Origin: Candidatus Sungiibacteriota bacterium
GTDB taxonomy: Bacteria; Patescibacteriota; Minisyncoccia; Sungbacterales; HO2-52-23
Length of the DNA: 52,199 nucleotides
Direction: 5' to 3'
Assembly: GCA_016186095.1 (NCBI GenBank)
Contig: JACPMG010000003.1
Coordinates: forward strand, 1 to 52,199
Below the pieces are notes generated by a model, which searched no databases, was not told where the DNA came from, and was given only the letters and a program-made list of their open reading frames with translations. Shown in pieces: positions 2,850-52,199 of this stretch. Within the stretch, counting starts at the first letter, position 1, and each line of letters opens with the position of its first letter. Made by a program: the position numbers and the translations under genes.

Positions 2850-4559
2850 TTAATTTTCCAAAATCACGAAATCTCCGGGCACGCGTACCCTTAACTGGGG
2901 ATTTTTTTGTTTAATTTCATTAATTAGTGCTTTGTCTTCTCCGTTAAGAAAAGCGATGACTGTCGGCTGATTACTGGTAACTAGTAACTGGTTACTAATA
3001 TTCTGCGGCAATACGTACTCCATATTTTTCTCCTTTTGTCCAGTTTCGCGAAAAGTATCTGTGGCAAACATTACGGTCTGCGCGGGCACGCTGATGCCGC
3101 GCACTTCAACTCCGGGGAGATTTACCACCACATATTTTTTGGTCTCATTCGGAAGACCGTCTAGAAATTTGCCAAGATGCCATAAATCGGTTGAGAAAGC
3201 AAAATAGGTCTCCTCGCTTCCGGCCCAACGGATAAAATAATTCCGGTAGGTAAGAATAGGGATTAGCGTCAGAAGCAAAATCGCCAGAAGCGCCACCTCT
3301 TTTTTTACCCTCTCAAGTTGGCCTATATACGTCGGCCATTTTAACTTCTGCAGATCCAGCCAATTTATAATCTTTTGGTAAATCCACCACGCCCCCAAGC
3401 CTGATAAAATCATCACCGGCGGGATTAGGCCGATGGAGCGAAGCGCATGAGGAAGGCCTTCGCGCGTTAGAGTGGCAGGGAGAGACATAAAGAGGAGCCA
3501 GGCTAGTAAGCTTGTAGTTTGTAGCTTGTAGCTTGTAGCGCGGAAAAATAGCTGACGGAGCATAAGGATAAAACCCGTGAGGAAGAATATGGCTACAACA
3601 GATTGGAGTTGGGGCTGGCAGGCAAAATTATGCCGCCAGTTGCAGTCGCCTCGTATAAAAAACATACCTAATGTTGCCAGATTTGATTTTATAAATTCCT
3701 TCAGAGGCGATATGGATGAGAAAATAGATACGTCTCCGGCTCTTCCCAGAAAGTCCTGCGGATTTTGTACAAAATGTAATCCGAGGGGAAGAGCGACCAC
3801 GAAGGTTATGAGAAAAAAAAGTAGTACCGCGCACGGCGCACAGTATTTATTCGTATAATTGGTATTCATTCGTATATTGGTATCGGTGTTCTTCCACCAT
3901 TTCCACAAATACCAAATAAGTGGAACTGCTAGGACAAACGGTATGAATCTGAAAGCAATGTACGTGTGAAAGCCAAGACCGATAAAAATCCCGGCCCAAA
4001 CCATATCCAGAATTTTTCCTTGCCGAAGCCCTTTTAGCAAAAAATATATTCCAAACGTTGCCAAAAACGGGATCATGATTGCCCGAAACCCTATGCGGGA
4101 GAAATTGATGTGCCAATAGCTCGTGGCCAAAAAGAAAGAGGAGAGCAGCGCTACGAAATACGAATTGGTACGAAAGTACGAAAGATTGTTTTTCGTAATT
4201 TCGTATTCTTTCGTATTTCGTAGCCAATGCGATTGTCCAAACAGTTCTTTGGTTAAAAGGTAAACTCCGAGAATGGTTAAAGTTCCAAAAATGGCGCTGA
4301 CTATTCGCAATGCCCATGGCTCAATTCCAAAAAGCCGAAGCGAGAGCGCCTGCAAATTTATAAATAGCCCTTCGCGGCCGTTATTTTCCGGATAAAACAC
4401 CTTGAAGTCGCCCGTGGCAATGGCTTCAAGCGCGTTATTCCCGTTCATGGCCTCATCCGGATAAAGTCCGGGCGGGACTTCGGTGATTTGGTAGAAACGG
4501 AAAAATGCGCCTATGGCTAGGATAAAAATAAGGGTGGCGAATTTCTGTCTTTTGCTCAC
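2850..4559 (-). CDS. ArnT/PMT-like GT-C glycosyltransferase, second paralog
   Basis: 569 aa with a GTG start. Polytopic, with loop motif LYPDEAMNGNNALEA. Carries three in-frame oligo-repeat modules. Confidence 0.8.
   Translation of the reverse strand: MSKRQKFATLIFILAIGAFFRFYQITEVPPGLYPDEAMNGNNALEAIATGDFKVFYPENNGREGLFINLQALSLRLFGIEPWALRIVSAIFGTLTILGVYLLTKELFGQSHWLRNTKEYEITKNNLSYFRTNSYFVALLSSFFLATSYWHINFSRIGFRAIMIPFLATFGIYFLLKGLRQGKILDMVWAGIFIGLGFHTYIAFRFIPFVLAVPLIWYLWKWWKNTDTNIRMNTNYTNKYCAPCAVLLFFLITFVVALPLGLHFVQNPQDFLGRAGDVSIFSSISPLKEFIKSNLATLGMFFIRGDCNWRHNFACQPQLQSVVAIFFLTGFILMLRQLFFRATSYKLQTTSLLAWLLFMSLPATLTREGLPHALRSIGLIPPVMILSGLGAWWIYQKIINWLDLQKLKWPTYIGQLERVKKEVALLAILLLTLIPILTYRNYFIRWAGSEETYFAFSTDLWHLGKFLDGLPNETKKYVVVNLPGVEVRGISVPAQTVMFATDTFRETGQKEKNMEYVLPQNISNQLLVTSNQPTVIAFLNGEDKALINEIKQKNPQLRVRVPGDFVILEN
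3508..3540. repeat. Tandem 7-mer AGCTTGT array inside a CDS
   Basis: agcttgt agtttgt agcttgt agcttgt agcg, translated on the minus strand as ATSYKLQTTS. Confidence 0.7.
3847..3885. repeat. Tandem TTCGTATA(A)TTGGTAT duplication inside a CDS
   Basis: Two adjacent copies, translated as NTDTNIRMNTNYTNKY. Confidence 0.7.
4150..4224. repeat. 75-nt (25-codon) palindromic ACGAA-rich element inside a CDS
   Basis: GCTACGAAATACGAA (4150-4164) is the exact reverse complement of TTCGTATTTCGTAGC (4210-4224). The length is a multiple of 3 and there is no stop. Confidence 0.75.
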
Positions 4560-5035: not shown

Positions 5036-7467
5036 TGTACCTTTTCTATTTATATCTTTTATTGATTTTTGTCATAGTCCTGGCTCTGCTGGCGGTTTTG
5101 ATATTGCGCGGATACGCCCGCCGCGGCCTGATTTCCCGTTCCCTTAATCTGGAGCTTCTTTTGGTAAGGTTTTCCCCTGTAGCACCGTCTCCGCAGGAGC
5201 CGACTATGCAGCAGATCCGGGAGAAGATCGCCCTGATGGAACAATTCTACAGTCACCTGCATTTAATACGCGACAACTGGTGGAGAAAATTGCTTTACGG
5301 CAAGCCGACTTTTTCTTTGGAACTCACTATCCCCTCAATCGGCGAGGAAATTTCATTTTATGTTGCCGTTCCGCGACGGCTCCGTATGGCTGTAGAAAAA
5401 GTTATTCAGGGTATTTTTCCCGATGCGCAGGTTGAAGTTTCGCGCGACTATAATATTTTCAATCCGGAGGGGCAGGCGGTGGGTGCGGGCATAGTTTTAA
5501 AAGAGAATAGATACTATCCCCTGAAAACTTATCAGAAATTAGAGGGTGATCCCATGAAGGAGTTAACCAACGTGTTTACCAAGCTTGCCAAGGAGGGCGA
5601 AGGAGCCGCGTTACAGATTATCGCGCGCCCGGCGCGCAAAAAATGGAGCAGAAAGTTAAAAGATCGCGCCAAAATACTTTTTGGCGGCAAAAAGGCAAAA
5701 GAGAGCGTATTATTGGGAGCCGTGCGCGGAGCAGGGGATTTCACCGGCATGACGCCCGGGGGCCCTGCGCAGGAGAGACCGGAGGAGCTAAAAAAAATAA
5801 CGCCCCTGCAGGAGGAAATCGTGCGGGCGCTGGAGAATAAGGCATCCAAACCTCTTTTTGACGCCAATATACGCATCCTGGCATCAGCAGTAGATGATGC
5901 GCGGGCACGCTCAATCCTGCAGGGATTGACACTCGCTTTTGCTCAGTTTGCCGACCAGAATTTAAACAGTTTTAAAATAATACCCATGGAGGGTAGGTCT
6001 TTAAAAAGTTTTATCTTCAATTTTTCTTTCCGCGGATTTGACGATTACAGAAAAATTATTTTGGGATCGGAGGAGCTGACGTCTATTTTCCATTTCCCCA
6101 ATATCCTTACCGAAACCCCGAAGCTGAAAATTGTGAAAGCGCGCGAAGCGCCCCCGCCGGTAAATGTTCCGCAAGACGGCCTGCTTCTGGGGTATAACGT
6201 ATTTCGCGGAGAAAAAACCGACATTAAGCTGTCGGAAGAGGATCGGCGTAGGCATTTATATATCATCGGGCAGACCGGAACCGGAAAGTCGGTTTTCTTG
6301 GAGAGTATGATTATTCAAGATATACAGGCCGGCAAAGGGGTGTGCGTTATTGACCCGCACGGAGATATGGTGGAGCGTATTTTGGGGTTTGTGCCGCGGC
6401 ATCGAGCGCAGGACGTGGTTTATTTCAACCCCGGAGATGTGGCGCGCCCCATGGGCTTGAACATGCTCGAATACGATCCTAATTTTCCCGAGCAGAAAAC
6501 TTTTATTGTAAACGAACTTCTCTCCATTTTTGACAAACTTTACAATATGTCCATTGCCGGAGGCCCGATGTTTGAGCAGTATTTCCGCAACTCCACGCTT
6601 CTGGTTATGGATGATCCAACGTCGGGCAACACTTTAATCGAAATTGAGCGGGTGCTTACCGATAAGCCTTTTCGTGACCTTAAACTTTCGCGCTCCAACA
6701 ACATCGTGGTGAAAAATTTCTGGACGCAGATTGCGGAAAAAGCCGGAGGAGAAGCATCGCTGAAGGATATGGTGCCTTATATTGCCTCCAAGTTTGATAA
6801 TTTTATTGCGAACGAAATCATGCGTCCCATAATCGCGCAGGAGAAATCCGCTTTTAATTTCCGCGAGGTAATGGATAATCAAAAAATACTTCTGGTCAAT
6901 CTTTCCAAGGGGCGTCTGGGCGATCTGAATTCTTCCCTTATCGGCCTCGTGATCGTGGGCAAGCTCCTGATGGCGGCACTCTCCCGTACCGATCAGCCCG
7001 AGGAGCGCAGAAAAGATTTTTATCTTTATATTGATGAGTTCCAAAACGTTACCACTGATTCTATCGCGACCATCCTCTCGGAGGCGCGAAAATACCGGCT
7101 TGATCTTATCATCACCCATCAATTTATCGGACAGTTGAAAGAAGAAATCAAAAAAGCGGTTTTTGGAAACGTAGGCTCCATGGTTTCTTTCCGGATCGGA
7201 TCGGATGACGGCGAATTTATGGCCAAGCAATATAAACCCGTTTTCTCCGAGCAGGATTTGCTGAATATAGATAACTTCAACTGCTACGTGAAGCTTTTAA
7301 TAAAAGGCCAGACCTCGCCGTCTTTCAGTATGAAGACCTATCCTTCGGGCAAGGGCGAGAAAGAAGTCGCCGAGATGATAAAAGAGATTTCCCGTACCAA
7401 ATACGGCAGGCCGCGAGAAGAAGTGGAGCGGGAGATCATGGAAAAACATCAGAAGCCAAGCTTTTAG
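5035..7467 (+). CDS. VirD4/TraD/TrwB-like type IV coupling-protein-family P-loop ATPase
   Basis: 810 aa with an N-terminal TM segment. Walker A is IIGQTGTGKS and Walker B-like is FYLYIDEFQN, followed by a THQFIGQL block. Confidence 0.75.
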   Translation: MYLFYLYLLLIFVIVLALLAVLILRGYARRGLISRSLNLELLLVRFSPVAPSPQEPTMQQIREKIALMEQFYSHLHLIRDNWWRKLLYGKPTFSLELTIPSIGEEISFYVAVPRRLRMAVEKVIQGIFPDAQVEVSRDYNIFNPEGQAVGAGIVLKENRYYPLKTYQKLEGDPMKELTNVFTKLAKEGEGAALQIIARPARKKWSRKLKDRAKILFGGKKAKESVLLGAVRGAGDFTGMTPGGPAQERPEELKKITPLQEEIVRALENKASKPLFDANIRILASAVDDARARSILQGLTLAFAQFADQNLNSFKIIPMEGRSLKSFIFNFSFRGFDDYRKIILGSEELTSIFHFPNILTETPKLKIVKAREAPPPVNVPQDGLLLGYNVFRGEKTDIKLSEEDRRRHLYIIGQTGTGKSVFLESMIIQDIQAGKGVCVIDPHGDMVERILGFVPRHRAQDVVYFNPGDVARPMGLNMLEYDPNFPEQKTFIVNELLSIFDKLYNMSIAGGPMFEQYFRNSTLLVMDDPTSGNTLIEIERVLTDKPFRDLKLSRSNNIVVKNFWTQIAEKAGGEASLKDMVPYIASKFDNFIANEIMRPIIAQEKSAFNFREVMDNQKILLVNLSKGRLGDLNSSLIGLVIVGKLLMAALSRTDQPEERRKDFYLYIDEFQNVTTDSIATILSEARKYRLDLIITHQFIGQLKEEIKKAVFGNVGSMVSFRIGSDDGEFMAKQYKPVFSEQDLLNIDNFNCYVKLLIKGQTSPSFSMKTYPSGKGEKEVAEMIKEISRTKYGRPREEVEREIMEKHQKPSF

Positions 7468-9281: not shown

Positions 9282-10475
9282 ATGAGCGAACTTGTTCTCT
9301 ATCGCAAATACCGTCCCAAAAGCTTTGAAGAAGTTGTCGGGCAGGAGCATGTGATAGCGGCGATTACCAACGCCATCAGAACGGGCCGTGCGGCTCATGC
9401 TTATTTATTCTCCGGCCCTCGCGGTATAGGTAAGACGACTGTGGCGCGACTTATCGCCAAAGCCATGAATTGTGCCAATTTGTCCAAACTTTCTGAAGGA
9501 AAGTTTGCTGACAAATTGAGCACCCGCCGAAGCCTTGGCGAAGGCGGGTTTCCTATACCCTGTGATGCCTGCGATCTTTGCAAAAGTTTTAATGAGGGTA
9601 GGGCGTTTGATTTAATTGAAATCGATGCCGCGTCCAACAGGGGTATTGACGAGATACGAGAGCTTCGCGAGGGCGTGCGTTTTGTCCCGTCGCAGGGAAA
9701 ATACAAGACCTACATAATTGACGAGGTGCATCAGCTGACCAAAGAGGCCTTTAACGCGCTTCTGAAAACCCTGGAGGAGCCGCCCTCGCACGCGGTCTTT
9801 GTCTTGGCCACCACCGAGCTTGAGAAAGTTCCGGCAACAATTGTTTCGCGCACCCAGCACTTTGATTTTCGAAGGCCGAATGTTTCGCAAATCGTAAATC
9901 GTCTGACGCATATCGCAAAAAAGGAAAAAGTAGAGCTTGAACCGGACGCGGCGCACTTAATTGCGCTTGCCGCGGAGGGTTCTTTGCGTGATGCTGAAAG
10001 TATTTTGGGGCAGGTTATGGCCGTGGAGGATAAAGAGATTACGCGTCGCGAAGTGGAAAGCATCCTCGGGCTTCCCCGCAGGGAGTCGGCCAAAAAAATG
10101 TTTGAACTGGTGGCCAAAAAAGACGCTTCCGGGGCCCTTACTCTGGTGCAGGAGCTTCACGATGCCGGCCACGACCTAACTTATTTTTCCAAACTTCTCA
10201 TGCAGTATTTCCGCAGTGCGCTTTTTTTGAAAACGGATCCTGAACTTAAAAAATTCGTGATGGGTGAGATGCTGACGGATGAGATTGATTGTATCACGGC
10301 TCATCTTTCGCTCTTTCAGGCGGGTGATCTTTCGCGGGCGGTAAATATCATTTTTGACAATCTGCAATCTTTCAAAAAAACTCCTATTCCTCAACTTCCG
10401 CTTGAACTTACGGTGGTGGAGCTGATTGCGGGATCGGAGAAAAACGCCTATGGAGAAAAGATCAAAGTTATCTAA
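9282..10475 (+). CDS. dnaX: DNA polymerase III subunit gamma/tau (short form)
   Basis: YRPKSFEEVVGQEHV, Walker A GPRGIGKTT, IIDEVHQL and SRTQHF motifs, 397 aa. Confidence 0.9.
   Translation: MSELVLYRKYRPKSFEEVVGQEHVIAAITNAIRTGRAAHAYLFSGPRGIGKTTVARLIAKAMNCANLSKLSEGKFADKLSTRRSLGEGGFPIPCDACDLCKSFNEGRAFDLIEIDAASNRGIDEIRELREGVRFVPSQGKYKTYIIDEVHQLTKEAFNALLKTLEEPPSHAVFVLATTELEKVPATIVSRTQHFDFRRPNVSQIVNRLTHIAKKEKVELEPDAAHLIALAAEGSLRDAESILGQVMAVEDKEITRREVESILGLPRRESAKKMFELVAKKDASGALTLVQELHDAGHDLTYFSKLLMQYFRSALFLKTDPELKKFVMGEMLTDEIDCITAHLSLFQAGDLSRAVNIIFDNLQSFKKTPIPQLPLELTVVELIAGSEKNAYGEKIKVI
9485..9548. repeat. In-frame hairpin insertions in the dnaX zinc-module linker
   Basis: CAAACTTTC-TGAAG-GAAAGTTTG (9485-9507) plus CCCGCCGAAGCCTTGGCGAAGGCGGG (9523-9548). 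The 26-mer recurs exactly at 23579-23604. Confidence 0.75.
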
Positions 10476-11183: not shown

Positions 11184-11240
11184 TTTATTGCGGGGTAGTG
11201 AAGTAGTATCACGCTTGCCGGCGTCTGTCCTACACAAAAC

Positions 11241-11311
11241 TCCGGGCTCGTCTAATGGTAGGACGGTGGCCTTTGAAGCCATTAATCTACGTTCGAATCG
11301 TAGGCCCGGAG
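11241..11311 (+). tRNA. tRNA-Gln (anticodon UUG)
   Basis: Hand-folded cloverleaf: acceptor TCCGGGC/GCCCGGA, anticodon loop CTTTGAA, T-loop TTCGAAT. No encoded CCA. Confidence 0.85.
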
Positions 11312-11348
11312 TTTTGTGCGGGATAGCAACTAATTTAGGTCCGTTTTG

Positions 11349-13467: not shown

Positions 13468-13510
13468 AGATCAGTTGCATTGTTTAACAAGTTTTGTTAT
13501 CATAATCTTC

Positions 13511-13729
13511 ATGGACACGCTTACTATTCCTAAAAAATTAGCTCAAAAGGACGATTTGGTAGTGATTCCCCGTAAAGAATACGAGGGACTTTTGGAATTG
13601 AGACGGATGAAAGAATTTATACCGACCCGTGCTCAAAAAAGGGCGATGTTGCGGGCAGAAAGAAATTTCAGCCGCAAAAAAACACTCTCTTATAATGAAC
13701 TCGTCAAAAAGTTGGGATTTACAGGTTGA
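13511..13729 (+). CDS. Putative antitoxin of a RelE/ParE-type toxin-antitoxin pair
   Basis: 72 aa (MDTLTIPKKLAQKDDLVVIPRKEYEGLLEL...). Overlaps the downstream toxin gene by 35 nt. Confidence 0.55.
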   Translation: MDTLTIPKKLAQKDDLVVIPRKEYEGLLELRRMKEFIPTRAQKRAMLRAERNFSRKKTLSYNELVKKLGFTG

Positions 13730-13964
13730 TCCCGATGTTTTCAAGATCTTGCAGAAGATGCCTCGGCATGATGCCGAGGTTATTTTGGAAGTAATCCGGC
13801 TCTTGCCTATCAATCCGCACTTCGGTGATATTCAAAAGATGAAGGGCGAAGATAATACTTGGCGTCGCCGCCTTGGTTCGTATCGGATTTTTTTCAGAAT
13901 CAAAATTGCTGAAAAAGTTGTTCTTGTTTTTCATCTGGAGCGCAGGACCTCCAAAACGTATTAA
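13695..13964 (+). CDS. RelE/ParE-family toxin
   Basis: 89 aa. The C-terminal WRRRLGSYRIFFRIKIAEKVVLVFHLERR matches the RelE/ParE core pattern (W.RRVGDYRIIY...V..I.HR). Confidence 0.65.
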   Translation: MNSSKSWDLQVDPDVFKILQKMPRHDAEVILEVIRLLPINPHFGDIQKMKGEDNTWRRRLGSYRIFFRIKIAEKVVLVFHLERRTSKTY

Positions 13965-15087: not shown

Positions 15088-15125
15088 GAAAAGCCTTCTC
15101 GCTCGCGAGCGAGAAGGCTTTTCTT
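15088..15125 (+). terminator. Rho-independent terminator of csp
   Basis: Perfect palindrome GAAAAGCCTTCTCGCTCG/CGAGCGAGAAGGCTTTTC with a T-tract. Confidence 0.75.
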
Positions 15126-15144: not shown

Positions 15145-15273
15145 ATCCCACACATAACTTTCACTGCGCTAAGTGCCAGTAGTAATGCTGTGGGAAAGTT
15201 AATTTTACGTTCACAAAAGACTTGTACGAGATAAAAGCTATTTTTTCTCTTTTGTGAAAGTTATGTGTGGGAT
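15145..15273 (+). promoter_or_regulatory. typA leader with a perfect 20-bp long-range inverted repeat covering the start codons
   Basis: ATCCCACACATAACTTTCAC (15145-15164) is the exact reverse complement of GTGAAAGTTATGTGTGGGAT (15254-15273). A competing 9-bp pairing joins 15211-15219 to 15249-15257. Confidence 0.5.
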
Positions 15274-17140
15274 GGAAATTAGAAATATAGCTATAATCGC
15301 CCATGTTGACCACGGGAAAACCACTCTGACCGATGCCATGCTGCGTCAGACCGGCGTTACCAAAGAAGGTGTTTCCATGGATTCCAATACGCTTGAACTT
15401 GAGCGCGGCATTACGATTTATTCCAAAAACGCGGCTATTTTTTATCCTTCGACAAGCACTTCAGCCATGAGCTCAGTGTCGAATGGCTCAGGACGTCCCG
15501 TAACAAAAATAAATATCGTGGACACTCCGGGACACGCGGATTTTGGATCTGAGGTGGAGCGAGTGCTCCGCTCCATAGATTCCGTACTTTTGGTGGTTGA
15601 CGCGCAGGAGGGGCCGATGCCGCAAACCCGCTTTGTCTTAAAAAAATCGCTTGAGCTTGGCCTGAAGCCGATCGTGATTATCAATAAAATTGATAAAGCC
15701 GCAGCCGATCCGGCGCAATGCGCAGAGCAGGTGCTGGAGCTTTTTTTGGAGCTGGGGGCTGACGATAGCCAAGCGAATTTTCCGATCGTATATGCGAACG
15801 GCAGGGCGGGCATTGCCAAGAAAAAACTTGCTGATGAGTCAAAGGATTTGACGCCGCTGCTGGATACGATTTTGGAGCATGTGCCATCGGCATCCTTGCC
15901 GGAATTATCGTCGCGGCCTCTTCGTTTTCAGCCCTTTAATCTCGCCTATGATAATTTTCTGGGACGCATGGCCGTGGGAAGGGTTTATGAAGGCGTGGTG
16001 CGGCCGGGCATGCAGGTTTTTGTGAAGAAAGACGGCGATGCATCCGCACAGGCAGGCGAAATTTCTTCCGGGAAAATAACTAAAGTTTTTACTTTCAGGG
16101 GCTTGGAAAGAATAGAGGCCGAGGAGGCAGGAGCGGGAGATATAGCGCTTATTGCGGGACTTGAGGGTATTGATATTGGCGTGACCGTTACTACCGATAA
16201 GGAGGCGTTGCCCCTGCCCGCAATTGCGGTTGATGAGCCGACCATTGCGCTTACGTTTCTGGTAAATAATTCTCCGCTTGGAGGACGAGAGGGAAAATTT
16301 GTCACCTCGCGCCAGATCAGGGAATACCTTGAGCGGGAATTGCAGGTGAACGTGGGACTTCGCGTTGACTTTACTTCAGCGGATAGTTTCCGGGTATACG
16401 GAAGAGGGGAGCTTCATATAGCTATCTTGCTGGAAAATATGCGGCGGGCCGGATACGAGGTCCAGGTTTCGCAGCCGCAAGTGATTATTCGCACGGAAAA
16501 CGGGGTGCGGCTGGAGCCTTTTGAGGAAGTGATTGTGGATACTCCCGCAGAATTTCAGGGTGTCATAATTGAGCGCTTGGGGCCACGCGGATTTGTTATG
16601 AAAAATATCTTTCAGAAGGGCGATCTTGTGCGACTTTCGTTTGAAGGGCCCACGCGAGGGCTTCTGGGATATCGCAACCAATTTGTAATTGATACGAAAG
16701 GGGAGGGCATTTTTTCTTCGCGCGTCCTCGGCTTCAGGCCTATGGTCGGAGAAATTTATAAACGCGCGGTGGGCTCCATGATTTCTATGGCGGCCGGAAA
16801 GGCCCTAGGATTTGCTCTTTGGGGCTTGCAGGAGCGCGGCACCCTTTATATAAGTCCCGGAACCGAAGTATATATAGGCATGGTCATAGGCAATACTTCC
16901 AAGGGCGAGGAGATGTCGGTGAATCCGACCAAAGGAAAACAGCTTACCAATGTCCGCGCCGCCGCATCGGATGAGGCGATTGATTTGGTGCCGCCGTTTA
17001 AACTCACCATTGAGCGCGGCCTTGAAGTTGTGGCCGAAGACGAATATCTTGAAGTTACTCCCCAAAGCGTTCGTCTGCGGAAGCAAAACTTGACCGAAGC
17101 GGAGCGCACGAAAGCGAAAAGACAAAAAACATATGACTAA
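15272..17140 (+). CDS. typA: Translational GTPase TypA/BipA
   Basis: AHVDHGKTTL (G1), DTPGHADF (G3), NKID (G4), and a BipA-type C-terminal region. The start could also be ATG 15263 or GTG 15254. Confidence 0.9.
   Translation: MEIRNIAIIAHVDHGKTTLTDAMLRQTGVTKEGVSMDSNTLELERGITIYSKNAAIFYPSTSTSAMSSVSNGSGRPVTKINIVDTPGHADFGSEVERVLRSIDSVLLVVDAQEGPMPQTRFVLKKSLELGLKPIVIINKIDKAAADPAQCAEQVLELFLELGADDSQANFPIVYANGRAGIAKKKLADESKDLTPLLDTILEHVPSASLPELSSRPLRFQPFNLAYDNFLGRMAVGRVYEGVVRPGMQVFVKKDGDASAQAGEISSGKITKVFTFRGLERIEAEEAGAGDIALIAGLEGIDIGVTVTTDKEALPLPAIAVDEPTIALTFLVNNSPLGGREGKFVTSRQIREYLERELQVNVGLRVDFTSADSFRVYGRGELHIAILLENMRRAGYEVQVSQPQVIIRTENGVRLEPFEEVIVDTPAEFQGVIIERLGPRGFVMKNIFQKGDLVRLSFEGPTRGLLGYRNQFVIDTKGEGIFSSRVLGFRPMVGEIYKRAVGSMISMAAGKALGFALWGLQERGTLYISPGTEVYIGMVIGNTSKGEEMSVNPTKGKQLTNVRAAASDEAIDLVPPFKLTIERGLEVVAEDEYLEVTPQSVRLRKQNLTEAERTKAKRQKTYD
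15446..15502. repeat. 57-nt (19-codon) palindromic in-frame insertion in the typA G-domain
   Basis: PSTSTSAMSSVSNGSGRPV lies between AIFY and TKINIVDTPGH, where E. coli BipA has only ND. Nested inverted repeats: TTCGACA (15448-15454)/TGTCGAA (15477-15483) and AGCCAT/ATGGCT. Confidence 0.7.
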
Positions 17141-23119: not shown

Positions 23120-24052
23120 ATGGAAGAGAAAAATATAAAAGATCATATACTTCCGGCAAGCATCCTGATTGCTGCCGTCGTTATTGCCGGTGCCTGGGTA
23201 TATACCGCGAGATTAAAGGAAGCTCCGACGCTCCGGCTGCAGAGTGCGTCGGAGATCGGAGTCCCGACTTCGGAGGACGTCGGGAAAAAAGTTCTACCCT
23301 CTCAAGGAGTAGTCTTGCCTATCCGTTGGGGAGATCTTGGCGTCAAAATGGTCAGCGTAGGCCTGATCGATAAAGAGAGATTTGGAACTCTTTATGCGGA
23401 GCGCGGAGGTTTGAGCGCGGAAGAAAGAAAATTTCTTGAGCAGGCCGATAATGGTCAGATAAAGATTACTCCGCATAATTCCGGGATCTGGTTAAATATT
23501 TTTTGGGCCTTGGGATTGGGTACGAAAAATGATATTCTAGATGCAGGACCTATGGTGAGGTATGGCGGCGCGGGCTCGCCCGCCGAAGCCTTGGCGAAGG
23601 CGGGAAATTTTGCTTCAACCGGCGGATGGACTTTATCCAAAGGGGACGCCATGGAGCATTATAGTCGTCATCCTTTGATAGCATTGACGCCGGAGGAGCA
23701 GGAGCTGGTTGAACGCGTGAGTAAAAATATTTATCGTCCCTGCTGTAACAATCCGACCTATTTTCCCGACTGCAATCACGGCATGGCCATGCTCGGCCTA
23801 CTCGAACTTATGGCCTCGCAGGGTGTAAATGAAGAAGAAATGTATAAAGCCGCTTTGCAGGTTAACGCTTACTGGTTCCCGGATACCTATTTGACCATCG
23901 CCCAGTATTTGTCGTCCCAGGGAGTCAGCTGGGAAGAAGTAAATCCCAAAGAAATTTTGGGAGCAAACTATTCCAGCGGCTCCGGGTATCGCAAGATTCT
24001 TGATCAAGTCACCGTACCCGAAAGAAGAGGCGGCGGAAGCTGCGGAGTTTAG
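23120..24052 (+). CDS. Hypothetical membrane-anchored protein with a Cys/His motif
   Basis: 310 aa with CCNNPTYFPDCNHGMAM. Carries two palindromic insertions. Confidence 0.55.
   Translation: MEEKNIKDHILPASILIAAVVIAGAWVYTARLKEAPTLRLQSASEIGVPTSEDVGKKVLPSQGVVLPIRWGDLGVKMVSVGLIDKERFGTLYAERGGLSAEERKFLEQADNGQIKITPHNSGIWLNIFWALGLGTKNDILDAGPMVRYGGAGSPAEALAKAGNFASTGGWTLSKGDAMEHYSRHPLIALTPEEQELVERVSKNIYRPCCNNPTYFPDCNHGMAMLGLLELMASQGVNEEEMYKAALQVNAYWFPDTYLTIAQYLSSQGVSWEEVNPKEILGANYSSGSGYRKILDQVTVPERRGGGSCGV
23223..23285. repeat. 63-nt in-frame double-hairpin element (CTCCGAC/TCCCGAC family)
   Basis: CTCCGACGC (23223-23231)/GCGTCGGAG (23246-23254) and TCCCGAC (23262-23268)/GTCGGGA (23279-23285). Encodes APTLRLQSASEIGVPTSEDVG. 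Confidence 0.75.
23579..23604. repeat. 26-nt palindromic element identical to 9523-9548
   Basis: CCCGCCGAAGCCTTGGCGAAGGCGGG. Read here as PAEALAKAG, but as TRRSLGEGG in dnaX. Confidence 0.8.
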
Positions 24053-24654: not shown

Positions 24655-25350
24655 ATGCATTACGCTTGGCTCATCTGGAGTCTTATGCTTTTGGTTGTTT
24701 GGGCCGCGGTCTATCTTTCTTTAGAAAGTAAAGAAAGTAGAAAGGAGATGCTGGTGGTAAGCCTGTGGACTTCTCTGTTCGGGCTTACAGAGCCCTTATT
24801 CGTGCCGGAATACTGGAGTCCGCCGTCGCTTTTTGATTTGGCGCTAAAGACCGGCTTTGATTTGGAGAGCCTGCTTTTCATTTTTGGCGTTGGCGGTCTT
24901 GCGGTAGTCATCTATGAGAGAATCTTTCGGGTTAAGCATGTAAAAATCAGCGCGGAAGAAAAACACCGGCCGCGTCACAAATATCACCTGCTGGCCATTC
25001 TTTCAGCGCCGATGATCGGTATCCTGTTACTGGTATTTACGGACTTTAACCCTATTTATTCTGTATTCATCGCGCTAATCGGCGGCGGATTGTTTACTTG
25101 GTATTGCCGTCCCGATCTTAAAAAGAAGATGTTAGCAAGCGCATTTATATTTTTGGTACTATATTTTGTTTACTTTCTGACTCTCGTGTTTATGTATCCC
25201 GGATATGTCCAACAAGTCTGGAATCTCTCGGCAATATCAGGAGTTCTTATTTTAGGAATTCCCCTGGAAGAACTTATGTTTGCTTTCGGGATAGGATTTT
25301 TGTGGTCGAGCGCGTATGAGCATATTGGCTGGCGAAAACTCAATTATTAA
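24655..25350 (+). CDS. Lycopene-cyclase-domain-like polytopic membrane protein
   Basis: 231 aa with a PLEE motif (GIPLEELMFAFG). Confidence 0.5.
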   Translation: MHYAWLIWSLMLLVVWAAVYLSLESKESRKEMLVVSLWTSLFGLTEPLFVPEYWSPPSLFDLALKTGFDLESLLFIFGVGGLAVVIYERIFRVKHVKISAEEKHRPRHKYHLLAILSAPMIGILLLVFTDFNPIYSVFIALIGGGLFTWYCRPDLKKKMLASAFIFLVLYFVYFLTLVFMYPGYVQQVWNLSAISGVLILGIPLEELMFAFGIGFLWSSAYEHIGWRKLNY

Positions 25351-25360
25351 AACCTATCGT

Positions 25361-27535
25361 ATGAACCATAAACACAACGCCCAATTTTATACCTGCCCGA
25401 TGCATCCTGAAATAAGACAGGATAAGCCGGGCATGTGTCATGAATGCGGGATGAGTTTGGTGCCTACAGATGCAATCGACGCGCATCATGAACATAAGGC
25501 ATCCACTGACGCACATGATAAGCATGCTGGCCACAGCACGAAAATGTTTTTGAAAAAATTTTGGGTGAGTTCAATCCTCACCATCCCGGTAGTGCTTTAC
25601 GCGGATGTTCTTCAAAAAATCTATGGATGGTCGCCGCCGGACTTTCCCGGATCGGCGTATTTGCCGCTCGTGTTTGGCTCGGTGGTGTTTTTTTACGGCG
25701 GCTGGGTATTTCTGGCAGGAGCATACCGGGAGCTCAAGGCCAGGCTTCCCGGCATGATGACGCTTATCGGTATTGCGATTTTGGCAGCTTACCTCTGGAG
25801 CGTGTACGCGGTATTTGCGGGCGCGGAGGCTTTATTTTGGGAGCTTACGACTTTGATTACCATTATGCTTCTTGGCCATTGGCTTGAGATGCGGGCGGTT
25901 TCAGCCAGCCAAGGAGCGCTCAAAGAACTTTCCAAACTTCTTCCGGATACCGCTGAGGTAATCCGTAACGGCAGAATAGAAACGGTCGCTCTTTCTGAGC
26001 TTAGGGAAAAAGACGTGGTGTTTGTGCGACCGGGAGCTAAAATTCCTGCCGATGGAGTTGTTATGGAAGGTAAAGCGGAAGTGAATGAAGCTATGGTCAC
26101 GGGCGAATCCGCGCCGGTCGCCAAAATGACCAATAGCGCGGTTATCGCAGGCACCATAAATGGTGACGGGGCGCTTAGGATTCGCGTCAGCAGCATCGGC
26201 GAAAAAACATTTCTTGCCGGCGTAATGCGCTTGGTGGCCGAGGCGCAGGCCTCCAAGTCGCGGCTTCAAATTCTTTCAGACCGGGCGGCTTTTTACTTGA
26301 CTATCGTTGCCGTGGCCGGAGGACTCATCACTTTAATAGCTTGGCTCCTGGTCGGTGCTGAAATCGGTTTTGCCGTGGCGCGGCTTGTGGCGGTCCTCGT
26401 CATCGCCTGTCCGCACGCCCTGGGTCTTGCGGTTCCGCTCGTGGCTTCTATTTCAACCACACTTGCGGCTCGTCACGGATTTCTCGTCAAGCAGAGGTTG
26501 GCGCTGGAAGCGGCGCGAAGCACCAATATCGTTCTTTTTGATAAAACCGGAACTCTGACCCGCGGTGAATACGGCGTGACAAATATATGGCCGGTAAAAG
26601 TAGATGAGGAAGAGCTATTTCGGGTGGCCGCGTCAGTTGACATGCATTCCGAACATTTCATTTCCAAGGCCATTGTGAAAAAAGCGGAAGAGGGCGGCGT
26701 TAAAATGGCAGAAGTCAAGGATTTCGCGCGTCTTCCCGGCAAAGGGGTAAGGGGGAGTATAAACGGCGTGGTTATATTTGTCGGCGGGCAGGCGATTTTG
26801 GACGATCTTCAAGTTATGCTGCCCGGGCCGCTTAGAAGCGAGACGGAGGAAGAAAGTAAAAAAGGAAAAACTATTATTTATGTAATTGCGGAGAAAGAAC
26901 TATTGGGTATTTTCGCTCTCGCCGATCTTATAAGAGAGGAGTCGCGCGAAGCAATTCAGGGTTTGAAGGCAATGGGCGTAAAAATTGCGATGGTCACTGG
27001 TGATTCGGAAGGCGTGGCCTCGTGGGTTGCCGGGGAACTGGGCATTGATGAATATTTCGCGAGAGTCCTGCCGCACCAGAAATCGGAAATCGTAAAACGA
27101 TTACAAGAAGGAAAAGCTCCGACGCTCACGGAAGAGAGGTCGGAGTCCCGACCGACTGAAAGTCGCGTCGGGAGAAATAAAGTCGCCATGGTGGGTGATG
27201 GCATTAATGACGCTCCGGCGCTCACCCAAGCAGACCTTGGTATCGCTATAGGCGCGGGCACAAATGTCGCGATTGAATCAGCAGGCATTATTCTTGTCCG
27301 CAATGATCCGCGCGATATTGTGAAAATCATCAAATTATCGCGTCTCACCTATACCAAAATGATTCAAAATCTTTTCTGGGCTACGGGATATAATGTTGTT
27401 GCTCTGCCGCTTGCCGCAGGCGTATTGGTATCAGAAGGAATTCTGCTTCAGCCGGCCCTGGCCGCACTCTTTATGTCTCTTTCCACTATCATTGTCGCAA
27501 TAAACGCGGTGCTTCTCCGAAATAAAGCATTATAG
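25361..27535 (+). CDS. copB: Heavy-metal (copper) translocating P1B-type ATPase, CPH subtype
   Basis: N-terminal YTCPMHPE...CHECGM metal-binding module and a His-rich stretch. TM CPH motif (ACPHAL), DKTGTLT and [14 protein letters not shown]. Confidence 0.9.
   Translation: [724 protein letters not shown]
27117..27173. repeat. 57-nt (19-codon) in-frame double-hairpin element in the ATPase P-domain
   Basis: CTCCGAC (27117-27123)/GTCGGAG (27139-27145) and TCCCGAC (27146-27152)/GTCGGGA (27167-27173). Encodes [19 protein letters not shown] just upstream of [14 protein letters not shown]. Confidence 0.8.
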
Positions 27536-42886: not shown

Positions 42887-43459
42887 ATGCCGAAAAATTC
42901 AAAAAAATTTCCGCCTTCTGCCAAACGCGTCTTCAAGGGCGTACTTTTTGATATATGGCAGTGGAAGCAGAAGATATATAATGGAAGGGTAGAGACGTTT
43001 GAGAGAGTTATACGTTCCGATAGCGTGCAGGTTATTGCCGTGGTCGGCAAAAGAATTATAATTCAGGAACAGCTTCAGCCAAGTTGGCCCAAGGCCATGC
43101 TTACTTTCCCCGGCGGACGCGCGGACGAAGGGGGCAGTATACTTGAGGAAGCAAAACGTGAGCTTTTGGAGGAGACGGGTTATGTTTCGGATGACTGGGC
43201 GCTATGGAAGACCGTCAAGCCCTCCATGACGGTAATTTTTACCATATATATCTTTGTCGCTCGTAATTGTAGAAAAGTTGCCAGGCCCCAGCTTGATGGA
43301 GGCGAGAAAATCAAAAACAAACTTGCATCTTTTGATAAATTCCTCCTGCTTTCCGAAAATCCCAGATTTCGCGAGTCCGAAGTGGCGGCGGAGATGCTCC
43401 GCGCCCGTCTTAATAAACGGAATAAAACTAGGCTCCATAAATTACTTTTTAAAAAATGA
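42887..43459 (+). CDS. NUDIX hydrolase
   Basis: NUDIX box GGRADEGGSILEEAKRELLEETGY. Its TGA overlaps the dnaG ATG. Confidence 0.75.
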   Translation: MPKNSKKFPPSAKRVFKGVLFDIWQWKQKIYNGRVETFERVIRSDSVQVIAVVGKRIIIQEQLQPSWPKAMLTFPGGRADEGGSILEEAKRELLEETGYVSDDWALWKTVKPSMTVIFTIYIFVARNCRKVARPQLDGGEKIKNKLASFDKFLLLSENPRFRESEVAAEMLRARLNKRNKTRLHKLLFKK

Positions 43460-45243
43460 GTTCTCCGATTGATGATATTAAATCCCGCCTTGACTTGGTG
43501 GAGCTGATCCAATCTTACGTTCGTCTCCAGAAAGCAGGGATCAACTACAAGGCCAACTGTCCTTTTCATACGGAAAAAACCCCGTCCTTTTTTGTCTCGC
43601 CCACCCGGCAGATGTGGCATTGTTTTGGATGCGGGAAAGGCGGCGACCATTTTAAGTTTGTCATGGAAATTGAGGGGCATGAGTTTCCCGAGGCCTTGCG
43701 CATGCTTGCCCAACGTGCCGGAGTGGTCTTGAAAAGAGAAGACCCCGCTATTCGTTCCGAGCGTAACCGCCTGTATGATCTTTGCGAGGAGGCGACCAAA
43801 ATTTTTGAAAGGAATTTGGCGCTGACTCCTGCTGTCAAGACGTATCTTAAAAACAGGGGAGTGGTTGGTGAGACCGCGAAAGAATTTCGTATCGGTTTTG
43901 CCCCGCAAAGCTGGGATTTTTTAATGAAGGCGCTTAGCGCCAAAGGTTTTCGCAAAGAAGAAATTGAAAAGTCCGGCCTGGCTATAAAATCAGAAGACGG
44001 AAATTCATGGTATGATCGTTTCCGAGGCAGGATCATGTTTCCGATTGCCGACGGCAACGGCCGCGTAGTTGGTTTTAGCGGGAGAGTATTTGAAGAAGTC
44101 CCGACGCGCTCCGCGGTCGGGACCCCGACTCCCGATAAAAATCGGGACGTCGGGGCAAAGTATGTTAATACTCCGAATACCCTAATTTATGATAAATCTC
44201 ACGTGCTCTATGGTTTTGACAAAGCCAAGCAGGAGATCCGCGGCAAAAATAAAGTGGTGGTGGTGGAAGGCCAGATGGATTGCGTAATGTCGCATCAGGC
44301 CGGAGTGAAAAATACGATTGCGGTATCGGGCACGGCTCTTACCCCTCAGCAGTTGAAGGTCCTGCGCCGGCTCTGCGATACAATCGTAAGCTCTTTTGAT
44401 ACTGATGCTGCCGGAGATACGGCGACTAAGCGCTCTTTGGCGCTAGCCACGGAGTTTGAGTTTGAACGAAAGATTGCCGTGATACCTTCGGGCAAGGATC
44501 CTGCCGATGCGGTTTTAGAAAATCCAAAATCATGGCTTGGTGCGGTGGAGGCGGCCAAACCCGTGGTGGAATTTTATTTTGAAAAATCGTTCCGGGGGCA
44601 TAATCCATCCGGTGCTGACGGCAAAAAAGCCATTTCGGCCACGCTCCTTCCTTTGATTGCGGAGCTGGGGAATGAGATTGAAAAATCCCATTGGGTAAGC
44701 GAGCTTGCGCGCCGCCTCTCGGTGCGCGAAGATTCAGTATGGGCGGAGCTCAAGCGTAAAAATGCCGGAGCCGCGACACCCAAGACCAGCGAGCCGGTGG
44801 AGGCCGGGCGGGTTCCGACCAGGCGCGATCTGCTGGAGGAGCGGATGCTGGCGCTTTTATGTTTTGTGAAGGAGGATTTACGCAAAAAAGAGTTCGCCCA
44901 TCACTACGTTGCTTTCACTTCAGACATAAACCAGCGAATTTTTGAGACACTGCTGGGGGGAAAAGTGACTGTCGCGGCGCCGGAATTGAAAAATGATTTT
45001 GATCTTCTTCGTTTCAAAGGCGAGGTGCTGGTGCAGATGACGCATGATTTGGAGGAGGAGTTTCTTTCCTGTAAACGGGAGCTGGAAAAAGAGTGCATCA
45101 AGGAACGGCTTCTGAAGATCGGCGGGGAAATAGAGAAGAAAGAGAAAGAGGGAGACCGCGTTTTGGTGACCTCTCTCTTGCAGGATTTCCGCGCGCTTTC
45201 TGATAAATTAAAACTGCTATCGCATGATTATGCCCAAAAGTAA
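43456..45243 (+). CDS. dnaG: DNA primase
   Basis: CHC2 zinc finger ([11 protein letters not shown]...CFGCG), a TOPRIM domain ([16 protein letters not shown]). Confidence 0.9.
44098..44155. repeat. About 57-nt in-frame double-hairpin element in the dnaG RNA-polymerase domain
   Basis: GTCCCGAC (44098-44105)/GTCGGGAC (44116-44123). CCCCGAC (44123-44129)/GTCGGGG (44149-44155) encloses TCCCGAT-AAAA-ATCGGGA. Encodes [19 protein letters not shown] just before KYVNTP. Confidence 0.8.
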
Positions 45244-46524: not shown

Positions 46525-46665
46525 TCCGGCGTAGCTCAGTGGTAGACCTGCCTGCCGGTAGGCAGGGCGGCTCGCTGTTCCAATCGGAGGATGATCCGCC
46601 TCTGGCGGAAACGAGAAGGTCCCAGGTTCTCAGCCAAAGGCTGATTCGCCTCCGGCGAAGAATCC
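46525..46665 (+). pseudogene. tRNA-Asn-like gene carrying three hairpin insertions and lacking its 3' end
   Basis: After removing 46547-46566, 46580-46609 and 46630-46659, the remaining 55 nt differ at one position from the body of the intact tRNA-Asn at 46700-46771. Confidence 0.6.
46624..46665. repeat. 42-bp direct repeat, left copy
   Basis: AGGTTCTCAGCCAAAGGCTGATTCGCCTCCGGCGAAGAATCC, identical to 47040-47081. Confidence 0.9.
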
Positions 46666-46699
46666 ATAACAATTTTAATTTCATTGTAAAACCATTTTC

Positions 46700-46771
46700 T
46701 CCCCAGTAGCTCAGCGGTAGAGCGGCTCGCTGTTAACGAGAAGGTCCCAGGTTCGAATCCTGGCTGGGGAG
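46700..46771 (+). tRNA. tRNA-Asn (anticodon GUU)
   Basis: Hand fold: acceptor TCCCCAG/CTGGGGA, anticodon loop CTGTTAA, T-loop TTCGAAT. Flanked by a perfect 14-bp leader/trailer inverted repeat. Confidence 0.9.
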
Positions 46772-46798
46772 AAAATGGTTTTACTATTTTTTATACAG

Positions 46799-47041
46799 AT
46801 GTTTTTCATATATGTGTTGCAAAGTATTTCATATGGAACGCGTTATGCCGGTAGTACTGATAATATAGAAAAAAGATTGAGCGAACATAATAAGGGCCGT
46901 TGCCGATATACCAGCGGACGCAAGCCATGGGAGATTGTATATCGGGAAAAATTTGAGTCAAGGGGTGAAGCAATGAAGCGCGAAAAATTTCTAAAATCGG
47001 GACAAGGAAGAAAATGGCTAGACGATAATTTATCCGGTTAG
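46799..47041 (+). CDS. GIY-YIG nuclease family protein (UPF0213-like)
   Basis: MFFIYVLQS..YGTRYAGSTDNIEKRLSEHNKG...KPWEIVYREKFESRGEAMKREKFLKS. About 80 aa from ATG 46799. Confidence 0.8.
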   Translation: MFFIYVLQSISYGTRYAGSTDNIEKRLSEHNKGRCRYTSGRKPWEIVYREKFESRGEAMKREKFLKSGQGRKWLDDNLSG

Positions 47042-47081
47042 GTTCTCAGCCAAAGGCTGATTCGCCTCCGGCGAAGAATCC
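47040..47081. repeat. 42-bp direct repeat, right copy
   Basis: Identical to 46624-46665. Overlaps the GIY-YIG stop codon. Followed by a tRNA-3'-end-like TGCCCGGGGAGG. Confidence 0.9.
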
Positions 47082-51329: not shown

Positions 51330-52199
51330 TTATGCGGTTAAATATTTTCTTTTAAGGTTGCGGTCCAGTTCTTCAAATCGTTTGATTGATAGGTCTAAAA
51401 ATTTAGGCTCGGTGTCAATGCCAATAAACTTCCTACCATGGAGATATGCTGCGATACCGGTTGTGGAGCTTCCTGTAAAGGGATCAATAACTAAATCTCC
51501 TTTATTTGTGCTTGCGAGTACTATTCTTTTTAACAAATCTTCTGGTTTTTGTGTAGGATGTTTCCCAAACCTCTTTTCTATCGGTCTGGGAGTGCCCATT
51601 GACCAAACCGAGCGCATTTGGAGCCCCGGCTTTTTTAAATTATCCTCCGTCCAATGGCCGTTTTTCATTAGATCATAATTGAATGTGTGTTTTGTTTTTT
51701 TTTCTTTTCTTGCCCAAATTAAAGTTTCGTGGCTTGCAGTAAAATATCGACAACTTAAATTCGGCGATGCGTTTGGCTTAAACCAGGCAATATCGTTTAA
51801 GATATGGTATCCAAGCGCCTGTAAAGCATGACCGCATTGATAAATTGAATGATATGTACCGCTTACCCAAAGTGTGCCATGCGGTTTCAAAACTCTTCGG
51901 CAGGCTTCAAGCCATTTGTAATGAAAATCATAATCGTCCTTAAAACCTCGGCTCTTATCCCAGTCTCCTTTGTTGACACTAACCATTCTTCCGGCATGGA
52001 CCGTAATGCCTCCGTTTGAAAGATTGTATGGGGGATCAGCAAAGACCATATCAACAGAATTTTCGGGAAGTTCGGCTAGAATATCCAAACAGTTTGCTAA
52101 ATAAAGTTTGAATTTTGGCTTTTCGTAATAAGTTTTACTCAGTTTTTCAGGTTTTGTTTTTGCTGTTTCAAATGATATCCATCTTTCAACTGGCTGTTC
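51330..52199 (-). CDS. Beta-class amino DNA methyltransferase (N6-A or N4-C), 5' end probably beyond the window
   Basis: Motif IV FADPPYN lies N-terminal to motif I DPFTGSSTTG. The track starts at TTG 52088, but the frame stays open to the window edge through KFKLYLANCLDIL, a normal N-terminal MTase block. Confidence 0.8.
   Translation of the reverse strand, partial: EQPVERWISFETAKTKPEKLSKTYYEKPKFKLYLANCLDILAELPENSVDMVFADPPYNLSNGGITVHAGRMVSVNKGDWDKSRGFKDDYDFHYKWLEACRRVLKPHGTLWVSGTYHSIYQCGHALQALGYHILNDIAWFKPNASPNLSCRYFTASHETLIWARKEKKTKHTFNYDLMKNGHWTEDNLKKPGLQMRSVWSMGTPRPIEKRFGKHPTQKPEDLLKRIVLASTNKGDLVIDPFTGSSTTGIAAYLHGRKFIGIDTEPKFLDLSIKRFEELDRNLKRKYLTA

Follow-up and report, generated by a model that had tools for sequence, protein, structure and literature searches.

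The stretch considered here, 52,199 nt of contig JACPMG010000003.1 of a Candidatus Sungiibacteriota bacterium (hereafter, the window), encodes a homolog of TypA/BipA on its plus strand (typA/bipA coding sequence, 15272-17140), and the part of this gene that specifies the GTPase domain contains a short in-frame segment that is probably a copy of a dispersed repeat of Patescibacteria (the Candidate Phyla Radiation, CPR). The likely start codon of typA is the ATG at 15272, with the protein beginning MEIRNIAIIAHVDHGKT; the mechanically delineated open reading frame (ORF) begins upstream of it, at the GTG at 15254. The product contains the Pfam domains GTP_EFTU, GTP_EFTU_D2, EFG_C and BipA_C (PF00009, PF03144, PF00679, PF21018), its homologs are named TypA, and a phmmer match to the solved BipA structure 8ewh spans residues 3-618 (E = 1.3e-167). 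The protein is about 50% identical to BipA of E. coli over the full length and shares with it the domain architecture and all G motifs; G1 (AHVDHGKT), G3 (DTPGH) and G4 (NKID) are intact and invariant, as are the columns T78-F91. Judged by its sequence, the host gene thus encodes the translational GTPase TypA/BipA. In the 5' leader of typA, positions 15145-15164 and 15254-15273 are the arms of a perfect 20-nt inverted repeat, spaced 89 nt apart. The second arm ends inside the start codon (GTGAAAGTTATGTGTGGGAT, followed by GG), and the repeat could sequester the translation start. A perfect 36-nt palindrome that looks like a terminator lies at 15088-15123, between the upstream acetyltransferase gene and typA (halves GAAAAGCCTTCTCGCTCG and CGAGCGAGAAGGCTTTTC).

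The segment in question (15446-15502) encodes the peptide PSTSTSAMSSVSNGSGRPV, which separates KNAAIFY from TKINIVDTPGHADF. It is flanked directly upstream by the KNAAIFY codons of strand beta2 of the G domain (15425-15445, plus strand) and directly downstream by the TKINIVDTPGH codons, which comprise strand beta3 and the G3 motif (15503-15535, plus strand). In phmmer comparisons of the window TypA with the E. coli BipA structures 8ewh and 5a9v, a 17-residue gap is opened exactly at this segment, and the extra residues are located in the beta2-beta3 hairpin loop, at the site where the solved structures have a tight turn (WNDY). An AlphaFold2 model of the window TypA built on 50 homologs places strands at residues 53-58 and 78-84, with residues 59-77 in coil and a predicted local distance difference test (pLDDT) score below 50 at residues 63-72. 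The segment is presumably translated as a disordered or flexible, hydrophilic loop rich in Ser, Thr and Gly at the hairpin tip, and the predicted tryptic peptide spanning the insert junction is NAAIFYPSTSTSAMSSVSNGSGRPVTK. Because the hairpin tip would lie away from the nucleotide pocket, the insert would be tolerated, and it is likely to be selfish or neutral rather than adaptive.

The length of this loop, counted between ERGITI and DTPGH, was surveyed in the 120 closest TypA proteins, all of which come from Parcubacteria-type CPR and are 74-87% identical. The E. coli length of 17 residues (for example, FY-KD-TKINIV) is found in 66 proteins, a 24-residue loop (FY-PSxSSGRxV-TKINIV) in 44, a loop of 25-26 residues in two (for example, the 26-residue form with PSINSGSGRAP) and one of 34-38 residues in seven; the one remaining protein did not match the search pattern. 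The alignment of orthologs suggested in the first-pass annotation of this DNA, with the short loop in more than half of the closest homologs and the gap against E. coli BipA, confirms the view expressed there that the GTPase domain contains an insertion. The ancestral TypA has a two-residue turn at the insert site, and many Parcubacteria typA alleles have instead a short motif, PSxSSGRxV, denoted here the base motif.

Comparison with these alleles indicates that the typA insert is built of three layers rather than being a single 57-nt unit. The base motif, which spans 21-27 nt (CCTTCGRCAAGCTCAGGACGT, also written CCTTCGRCAAGCTCAGG) and is read as PS[TA]SSGR, is represented by a left arm at 15446-15457 (CCTTCGACAAGC) and a right arm at 15488-15496 (TCAGGACGT). 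Between the arms lies a nested 30-nt core at 15458-15487 (ACTTCAGCCATGAGCTCAGTGTCGAATGGC), and two loop codons, CCC GTA (PV), follow at 15497-15502; all these features are on the plus strand. The left arm occurs without the core in the close relatives L006 and L009, the typA genes of which have the 24-residue loop and read CCT TCG RCA AGY TCA GGA CGT CCC GTA when compared codon by codon; the window typA has these codons plus exactly 30 nt at AGC^TCA, so that the core is precisely what separates it from the base-loop alleles. The GGACGT ending of the right arm is also found in a copy outside typA (L025). The CCC GTA codons accompany the base motif in typA alleles, where they replace the residues of the ancestral turn (KD/RG), and do not belong to the dispersed consensus. 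Accordingly, the 57 nt and 19 codons originally proposed for the insertion have to be revised: the repeat proper is the 51-nt, 17-codon copy at 15446-15496 (plus strand; residues 59-75, read as PSTSTSAMSSVSNGSGR), and only 30 nt are new relative to the base-loop relatives. Two positions of the window core depart from the family consensus, 15463 with A in place of G and 15479 with T in place of C, and pieces of the core resemble the flanking base motif (TTCGGC, GCTCAG and the inverted TGCCGAA).

The principal evidence on the nature of the segment comes from its occurrence elsewhere. A 22-nt probe from the center of the insert (AGCACTTCNGCCATGAGCTCAG), chosen to avoid the inverted-repeat arms, yielded 24 exact matches, 19 in metagenome contigs and five in GTDB species representatives, of which a minority are typA genes. 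Unrelated flanks surround the element in about 17 different contexts, and the information profile of the copies shows a sharply bounded block, CCTTCGACAAGCACTTCGGCCATGAGCTCAGTGCCGAATGGCTCAGG(GCAAG), with uninformative flanks. This block of 51 nt, or 17 codons, exactly matches the gap against E. coli BipA. The 18 distinct copies have a mean identity of 93%, and the consensus is conserved across Parcubacteria and Gottesmanbacteria. Nine of the contexts are long ORFs, all of which use the same frame, PS[TA]STSAMSSVPNGSG (peptide PSTSTSAMSSVPNGSG). In addition to typA, the element is carried in frame by aspS, where it corresponds to a 19-residue gap against the T. thermophilus aspartyl-tRNA synthetase (AspRS); by dnaE, in which the HHH_6 domain is 17 residues longer than the Pfam profile; by an SNase-like gene, with 17 residues more than the Pfam profile; and, as identified with Pfam, by valS (valyl-tRNA synthetase, ValRS), a XerC/D-like recombinase gene, a degT aminotransferase gene, a gvpL/F-dnaJ gene and an HD-domain gene. 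Only one of four open frames is used in the nine genes and the lengths of both tiers, the base motif and the core, are divisible by three, which fits selection for a tolerable peptide. The central idea of the first-pass annotation, an inserted sequence that belongs to an in-frame insertion family, is thus borne out by the near-unchanged recurrence of the core in these unrelated contexts, coding and non-coding.

Outside genes, one copy fills the spacer between tRNA-Arg and tRNA-His and another abuts the 3' end of tRNA-Ser. In Sungbacteria RIFCSPHIGHO2_01_FULL_50_25 (L015), a long copy in inverse orientation (5866-5916) is located upstream of typA, about 110 nt from the start, and a terminator-like hairpin (GCCTG...CAGGC TTTTTTT) comes after it; another base-like motif, CCTCGACAAGCTCGG, is found about 80 nt further upstream, and typA itself has only a diverged base motif in this genome. 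The base motif is also dispersed on its own at other loci (CCTTCGACAAGCTCAGG). In L029, it contributes an arm to an imperfect, composite palindrome, four occurrences of which were counted within 8 kb and which is found in intergenic regions; this arm pairs with a second one across an AT-rich loop (CCCTCGACTTCGCTCGGG ... CCTGAGCTTGTCGAAGG); the typA copy has one arm only. No match to the element was detected among IMG/VR viral contigs, PLSDB plasmids and INPHARED phages, and a search of a protein database with a 51-residue concatenate of the element peptide gave 65 word-sharing candidates, none with E <= 10. With respect to the source organisms, L031, a third-party annotation (TPA) metagenome-assembled genome (MAG) titled 'Saccharibacteria', matches the typA allele of Sungbacteria GWC2_49_10 (L002) over the 76 nt compared at the insert, and the HD protein of L032, titled 'Gammaproteobacteria', is named Candidatus Gottesmanbacteria by NCBI and has its homologs in Patescibacteria; the organism names in the titles of L029, L031, L032 and L033 (TPA MAG and GTDB records) look unreliable.

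The history of the element within typA can be followed by comparing alleles. The window TypA and that of L002 are 78% identical, and 62% of the four-fold degenerate sites differ outside the loop; among the 19 loop codons of the same pair, only one third position and 4 of 57 nt differ (binomial P ~1e-6). The element DNA is therefore 93% identical between two lineages in which synonymous sites are saturated. In a neighbor-joining tree of TypA with the loop masked, the empty, base and long states are interspersed, and two long-form carrier lineages, those of the window and of GWC2_49_10, are separated by lineages without the long form. Close pairs differ in state: empty and base alleles are found in genes with 92-94% identity, among them P0029 and P0009 (94.4% protein identity), P0035 and P0013 (93.2%) and P0110 and P0042 (93.9%), base and long alleles in P0097 and P0021 (96%), and the window, with the long form, is 87% identical to P0002, which has the base motif with a different nested insert. 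Given the interspersed states, the separation of the carriers and the conservation of the element, the 30-nt core must have reached the base motif of typA on two or more occasions, or else was transferred.

A parallel series is found in the unrelated HD-domain gene, in which a single site shows all three states. Most homologs read RPD-KKL and are empty; the base state is RPDPSASSGQVKSKL, with three homologs reading RPDPSASSGQ(VK)SKL; and the protein of L032 has the long state, RPDPSAS[TSAMSSVPNG]SGQVKSKL, with the same 10 codons nested in the base motif as in typA. Of all the evidence that addition of the core is specific to base motifs already in place, this parallel between the two genes is the strongest. 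Furthermore, the base motif of typA holds different nested inserts in other lineages, namely L001 (1795-1836, 42 nt), L007 (1414-1443, 30 nt) and L008 (1693-1719, 27 nt), the first two of which share GGCGGGCAGGCA; further variants within the motif are found in P0012, P0030 and P0114, the smaller ones adding one or two codons. No further copies of the L001/L007-type or L008-type inserts were detected in the approximately 300 kb of loci examined. These different nested inserts imply that the beta2-beta3 loop, or the base motif in it, is a recurrent insertion hotspot of typA.

The segment had been noted initially for its symmetry. The reported inverted repeats exist as placed, with TTCGACA (15448-54) matching TGTCGAA (15477-83), AGCCAT (15463-68) matching ATGGCT (15483-88) and TGAGCTCA at 15468-75. 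They are not nested as described, however: the first repeat's right arm overlaps at 15483 with that of the second, which is situated outside it, so that the two repeats cross, compete for this position and cannot jointly form a single hairpin. The RNA fold of the 71-nt region of the insert is at chance level (z = -0.51, with 57 of 200 shuffled sequences folding as well), 34% of all 57-nt segments of the window are at least as stable as the insert, and the combination of a perfect 7-nt stem with a second stem of at least 6 nt, present in 2.9% of these segments, is marginal. Neither the window copy nor the consensus yields a significant hairpin on either strand, whether folded as DNA or as RNA (consensus z = -0.5 to -1.25); there is no covariation above that of shuffled alignments in either stem across the 18 copies, and one pair of the outer stem is unpaired in nine of them. 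An apparent compensatory change between the window (TTCGACA/TGTCGAA) and L002 (TTCGGCA/TGCCGAA) failed when the 18 copies were considered. No Rfam family was found at the gathering threshold in the window or at the E-value threshold in an intergenic copy, for which the only match was a chance one to a snoRNA (E = 0.08). The nucleic acid of the element thus bears no sign of selected structure. The symmetry not being statistically unusual, the notion of a palindromic 57-mer has to be abandoned, whereas that of an inserted sequence stands on dispersal; symmetry, the ground for refutation named in the first-pass annotation, would have led to rejection of an insertion and was the wrong test of it.

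We consider it quite likely that typA has received a copy of a short repeat interspersed in Patescibacteria, and that this copy occupies, in frame, the tip loop of the beta2-beta3 hairpin in the GTPase domain. The base motif would serve as a landing pad for the core. In the scenario that we favor, the core is copied from another long-form copy into the base motif by short-homology gene conversion or template switching, for which 12 nt of homology would be available on the left and about 9 nt on the right; exchange between genomes would be combined with this copying. Alternatively, a dedicated site-specific enzyme might insert the core. In several copies, the internal TTCGGC/GCCGAA keep G/C where the local left arm has A, which argues that the core was transferred rather than regenerated locally. 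The core itself may be a 28-nt mini-palindrome (ACTTCGGC...GCCGAATG) accompanied by a 2-nt GC duplication.

Several observations count against an interspersed repeat. Neither terminal inverted repeats nor a clear target-site duplication was found at the copies, and no transposase is encoded in the window, where about 40 ORFs were scanned against Pfam; the mobility of the element is thus deduced from its distribution only. When filled and empty alleles are compared, the change is a replacement rather than a clean insertion, with 27 nt standing in for 6 nt in typA and 30 nt for 3 nt in the HD gene. Among GTDB representatives, the long form is present in at most one copy per genome, which is unusual for a proliferating repeat. 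The window contains no second copy of the 57-mer or the base motif within three mismatches, so that the search for the 57-mer elsewhere that was initially proposed came back empty here, and no repeat family of the window contains it. The apparent uniformity of the copies is in part a matter of ascertainment because the probe demanded 21 exact bases. Translation of the typA insert is inferred, and the strong nucleotide conservation could instead reflect the function of a DNA or RNA motif.

This last possibility, a functional motif for binding, uptake, processing or regulation that is selected wherever it is placed and confined in coding copies to a harmless frame, is rather unlikely. It would explain nucleotide conservation far above the synonymous expectation, the copies in the tRNA-tRNA spacer and at a tRNA 3' end, the copy that adjoins a terminator-like hairpin upstream of typA, the composite palindrome of L029 and the retention of the consensus across Parcubacteria and Gottesmanbacteria. 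However, such a motif would hardly be expected to lack a significant fold, covariation and an Rfam family or to be limited to a single long copy per genome, and its presence and absence among near-identical typA and HD genes argue that no host gene needs it. Ordinary lineage-specific expansion of the loop, by local slippage or duplication followed by vertical inheritance, with the inverted repeats as by-products, is very improbable. The length of the loop does vary among TypA relatives, the palindromy of the insert is not significant, and the likeness of the core to the flanking base motif suggests that the long form probably arose once by local rearrangement. Nevertheless, the same 51 nt with unrelated flanks in about 17 contexts and nine genes effectively refute such expansion as the origin of the typA copy, Tandem Repeats Finder detects nothing at the insert, the carriers of the long form are not monophyletic, and near-identity of the element DNA between typA lineages with saturated synonymous sites speaks against vertical descent.

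It is scarcely credible that the segment is an intervening sequence that is absent from the mature protein, be it a mini-intein, a segment spliced out of the RNA or a translational bypass ('hop'). The insertion into essential genes and the conservation at the level of nucleotides rather than amino acids would be compatible with such an element. The 17 residues are, however, far too few for an intein and lack intein termini, the 51 nt are far too short for a group I or group II intron and match nothing in Rfam, and there is neither a stop codon nor, as in T4 gene 60, a matching pair of take-off and landing codons. Moreover, in nine genes the segment always keeps to one open frame and to a length that is a multiple of three, as expected only if it is translated. 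An artefact of assembly or sequencing, for example an adapter, contaminating DNA or a chimera formed at a repeat, might be suspected from the same short sequence appearing in many independent metagenome assemblies, but its likelihood is practically negligible. The identical typA context comes from independent projects and assemblers (JGI, NCBI GCA_001001585, ENA), the copies differ by point substitutions, and plasmid and phage collections contain no match. A chimeric origin of the contexts is unlikely because, on either side of the element, the frame runs on into homologous protein sequence, in typA as well as in AspRS, DnaE, SNase and HD genes.

The interspersed repeat proposed here has its closest counterparts among small elements known to enter genes. 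A textbook curiosity of Rickettsia is that selfish repeats have colonized its essential genes in frame. The Rickettsia palindromic elements (RPEs) are dispersed repeats found in frame in unrelated housekeeping genes as well as between genes, encode a family-conserved peptide compatible with fold and function, lack obvious terminal inverted repeats or duplications, and are mobilized by a mechanism that is not known (PMC10969869, PMC3733652). The Patescibacteria element resembles RPE-1 to RPE-10 in being dispersed with unrelated flanks, albeit over many genomes, in being located in frame in unrelated functional genes with a conserved peptide, and in the absence of obvious terminal repeats or duplications. 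In contrast, RPEs are about 100-150 bp long and strongly palindromic, whereas the present element has 51 nt (21-27 nt in the base form) and folds no better than shuffled sequences; the hosts are different and no sequence similarity is apparent. The two-tier build, with a core in a base motif, the recurrent polymorphism at the same site and the limit of one long copy per genome also set it apart from RPEs.

The second group of counterparts are intragenic repetitive extragenic palindromic (REP) sequences of the GTAG/CGTC type, which span 20-40 bp, are mostly intergenic but also occur within genes, often those for replication and repair (Di Nocera et al., 2013, PMC3733652), encode 20-30 residues when present as dimers (PMC3733652), and have been described in Rickettsia, Opitutus, Thioalkalivibrio and Thauera (PMC3733652; reviewed in PMC10969869). 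Replication genes are hosts here too (dnaE and, for other inserts in the window, dnaX and dnaG), and in L029 the base motif forms one side of an imperfect, composite palindrome around an AT-rich loop. Membership in the REP family calls for an imperfect palindrome of 20-40 bp with a stem of 5-13 bp and a short loop, an unpaired GTAG or CGTC tag at one end, a REP-associated tyrosine (RAYT; Y1) transposase and a high copy number. The present consensus has neither GTAG nor CGTC on either strand, CGTC being found only in the GGACGT variant of the right end (the typA copies and L025); REPs form a stem-loop, whereas the typA copy is a solo arm with a nested core and the long form is a poor hairpin; no RAYT transposase was seen in the window, and the copy number is low among GTDB genomes (at most one long copy in each). 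Miniature inverted-repeat transposable elements, or MITEs, measure 70-300 bp, with terminal inverted repeats of 15-30 bp and target-site duplications. Some small non-autonomous repeats of this kind (QMITE of Coxiella, ERIC, Correia/NEMIS) likewise reside inside ORFs and add peptide segments, but the two ends of the present element, CCTTCGACAAGC and GCTCAGGGCAAG, do not match as inverted copies, and there is no duplicated flank except for the possible 2-nt GC repeat around the core. On balance, we classify the element, which departs from each of these families in defining features, as RPE-like or intragenic-REP-like, in Patescibacteria.

Other genes in the window also contain inserts. In dnaX (9282-10475), the segment at 9474-9548 adds approximately 21-25 residues (NLSKLSEGKFADKLSTRRSLGEGGF) before the zinc-module cysteines compared to E. 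coli DnaX, and its DNA forms a near-perfect 18-bp hairpin (CAATTTGTCCAAACTTTC...GAAAGTTTGCTGACAAATTG) with a minimum free energy of -26.4 kcal/mol, in the top 0.5% of segments; the 26 nt of its 3' part, CCCGCCGAAGCCTTGGCGAAGGCGGG, are repeated exactly at 23579-23604. The primase gene dnaG (43456-45243) has about 16 extra residues relative to the Aquifex primase, encoded at 44098-44155 by two adjacent GC-rich hairpins (GTCCCGAC...GTCGGGAC and CCCCGACTCCCGAT-AAAA-ATCGGGACGTCGGGG); 44098-44154 is the most stable 57-mer of the window (-40.9 kcal/mol). Given these strong hairpins and the repetition of the dnaX part, several families of in-frame inserts coexist in this genome. Within the dnaG insert, CGTC stands beside a stem-loop, reminiscent of CGTC-tagged REPs. 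GC-rich palindromic segments within a P-type ATPase gene (27116-27172; coding sequence 25316-27535) and in ORF 23120-24052 (23221-23290) are also among the most stable and have related motifs (CTCCGACGC...GTCGGAG and GGAGTCCCGAC...GTCGGGA); they look like the same style of intragenic hairpin repeat as in the primase. The shared insertion style that the first-pass annotation had perceived is plausible; the primase, ATPase and dnaX inserts are strong hairpins. The element of typA has no sequence in common with these inserts and, unlike them, no strong hairpin.

Several further repeats and genes of the window were observed. The genes for tRNA-Asn (46699-46772) and tRNA-Gln (11240-11312) are bracketed by inverted repeats of 23-24 nt (46683-46787 and 11225-11326; 96% and 87% complementary, respectively) that extend the acceptor stem into the leader and trailer, and a perfect 42-nt direct repeat surrounds tRNA-Asn (46624-46665 and 47040-47081). 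Inside a PMT_2-type glycosyltransferase gene (ORF 2850-4559, minus strand), positions 4150-4224 contain a 34-nt inverted repeat that is 85% complementary, with a 7-nt loop and TACGAAA-like units. A small ParE-like toxin gene and its upstream partner ORF (13475-13964) are located just upstream of the typA region, and an N6/N4 DNA methylase gene adjoins a PD-(D/E)XK-like ORF at the end of the window (51330-52088).

CPR genomes contain few recognizable mobile elements, and a literature search found no report of elements of the present type in CPR. The finding described here is an element analogous to those of Rickettsia but much smaller, present in typA, aspS, valS, dnaE and other core genes of the Candidate Phyla Radiation. 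That one site can be empty, base or long in each of two unrelated genes, and that distant typA lineages gained the element independently, speaks for a copying process that is sequence-specific. It is conceivable, although at present doubtful, that Patescibacteria possess a two-tier system of ultra-small, coding-compatible mobile DNA, in which the base motif (PSTSSG[QR]) colonizes surface loops of essential genes as well as intergenic and tRNA spacers and then becomes the landing site of a 28-30-nt mini-palindrome (ACTTCGGC-CATGAGCTCAGT-GCCGAATG, with a possible 2-nt GC duplication), both tiers being exchanged between deeply divergent CPR (Parcubacteria and Microgenomates), repeatedly at the same sites. 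If so, it would rank with the smallest site-specific mobile elements on record and would be a means of remodeling core proteins in reduced genomes. The presence or absence of the element might serve as a strain marker, and its positions amount to a natural map of 'permissive sites' in CPR proteins. Proteins of CPR are known for unexplained lineage-specific insertions, which confound alignments, phylogenies and structure predictions of marker genes, and an origin from dispersed repeats provides a concrete, testable source for some of these insertions.

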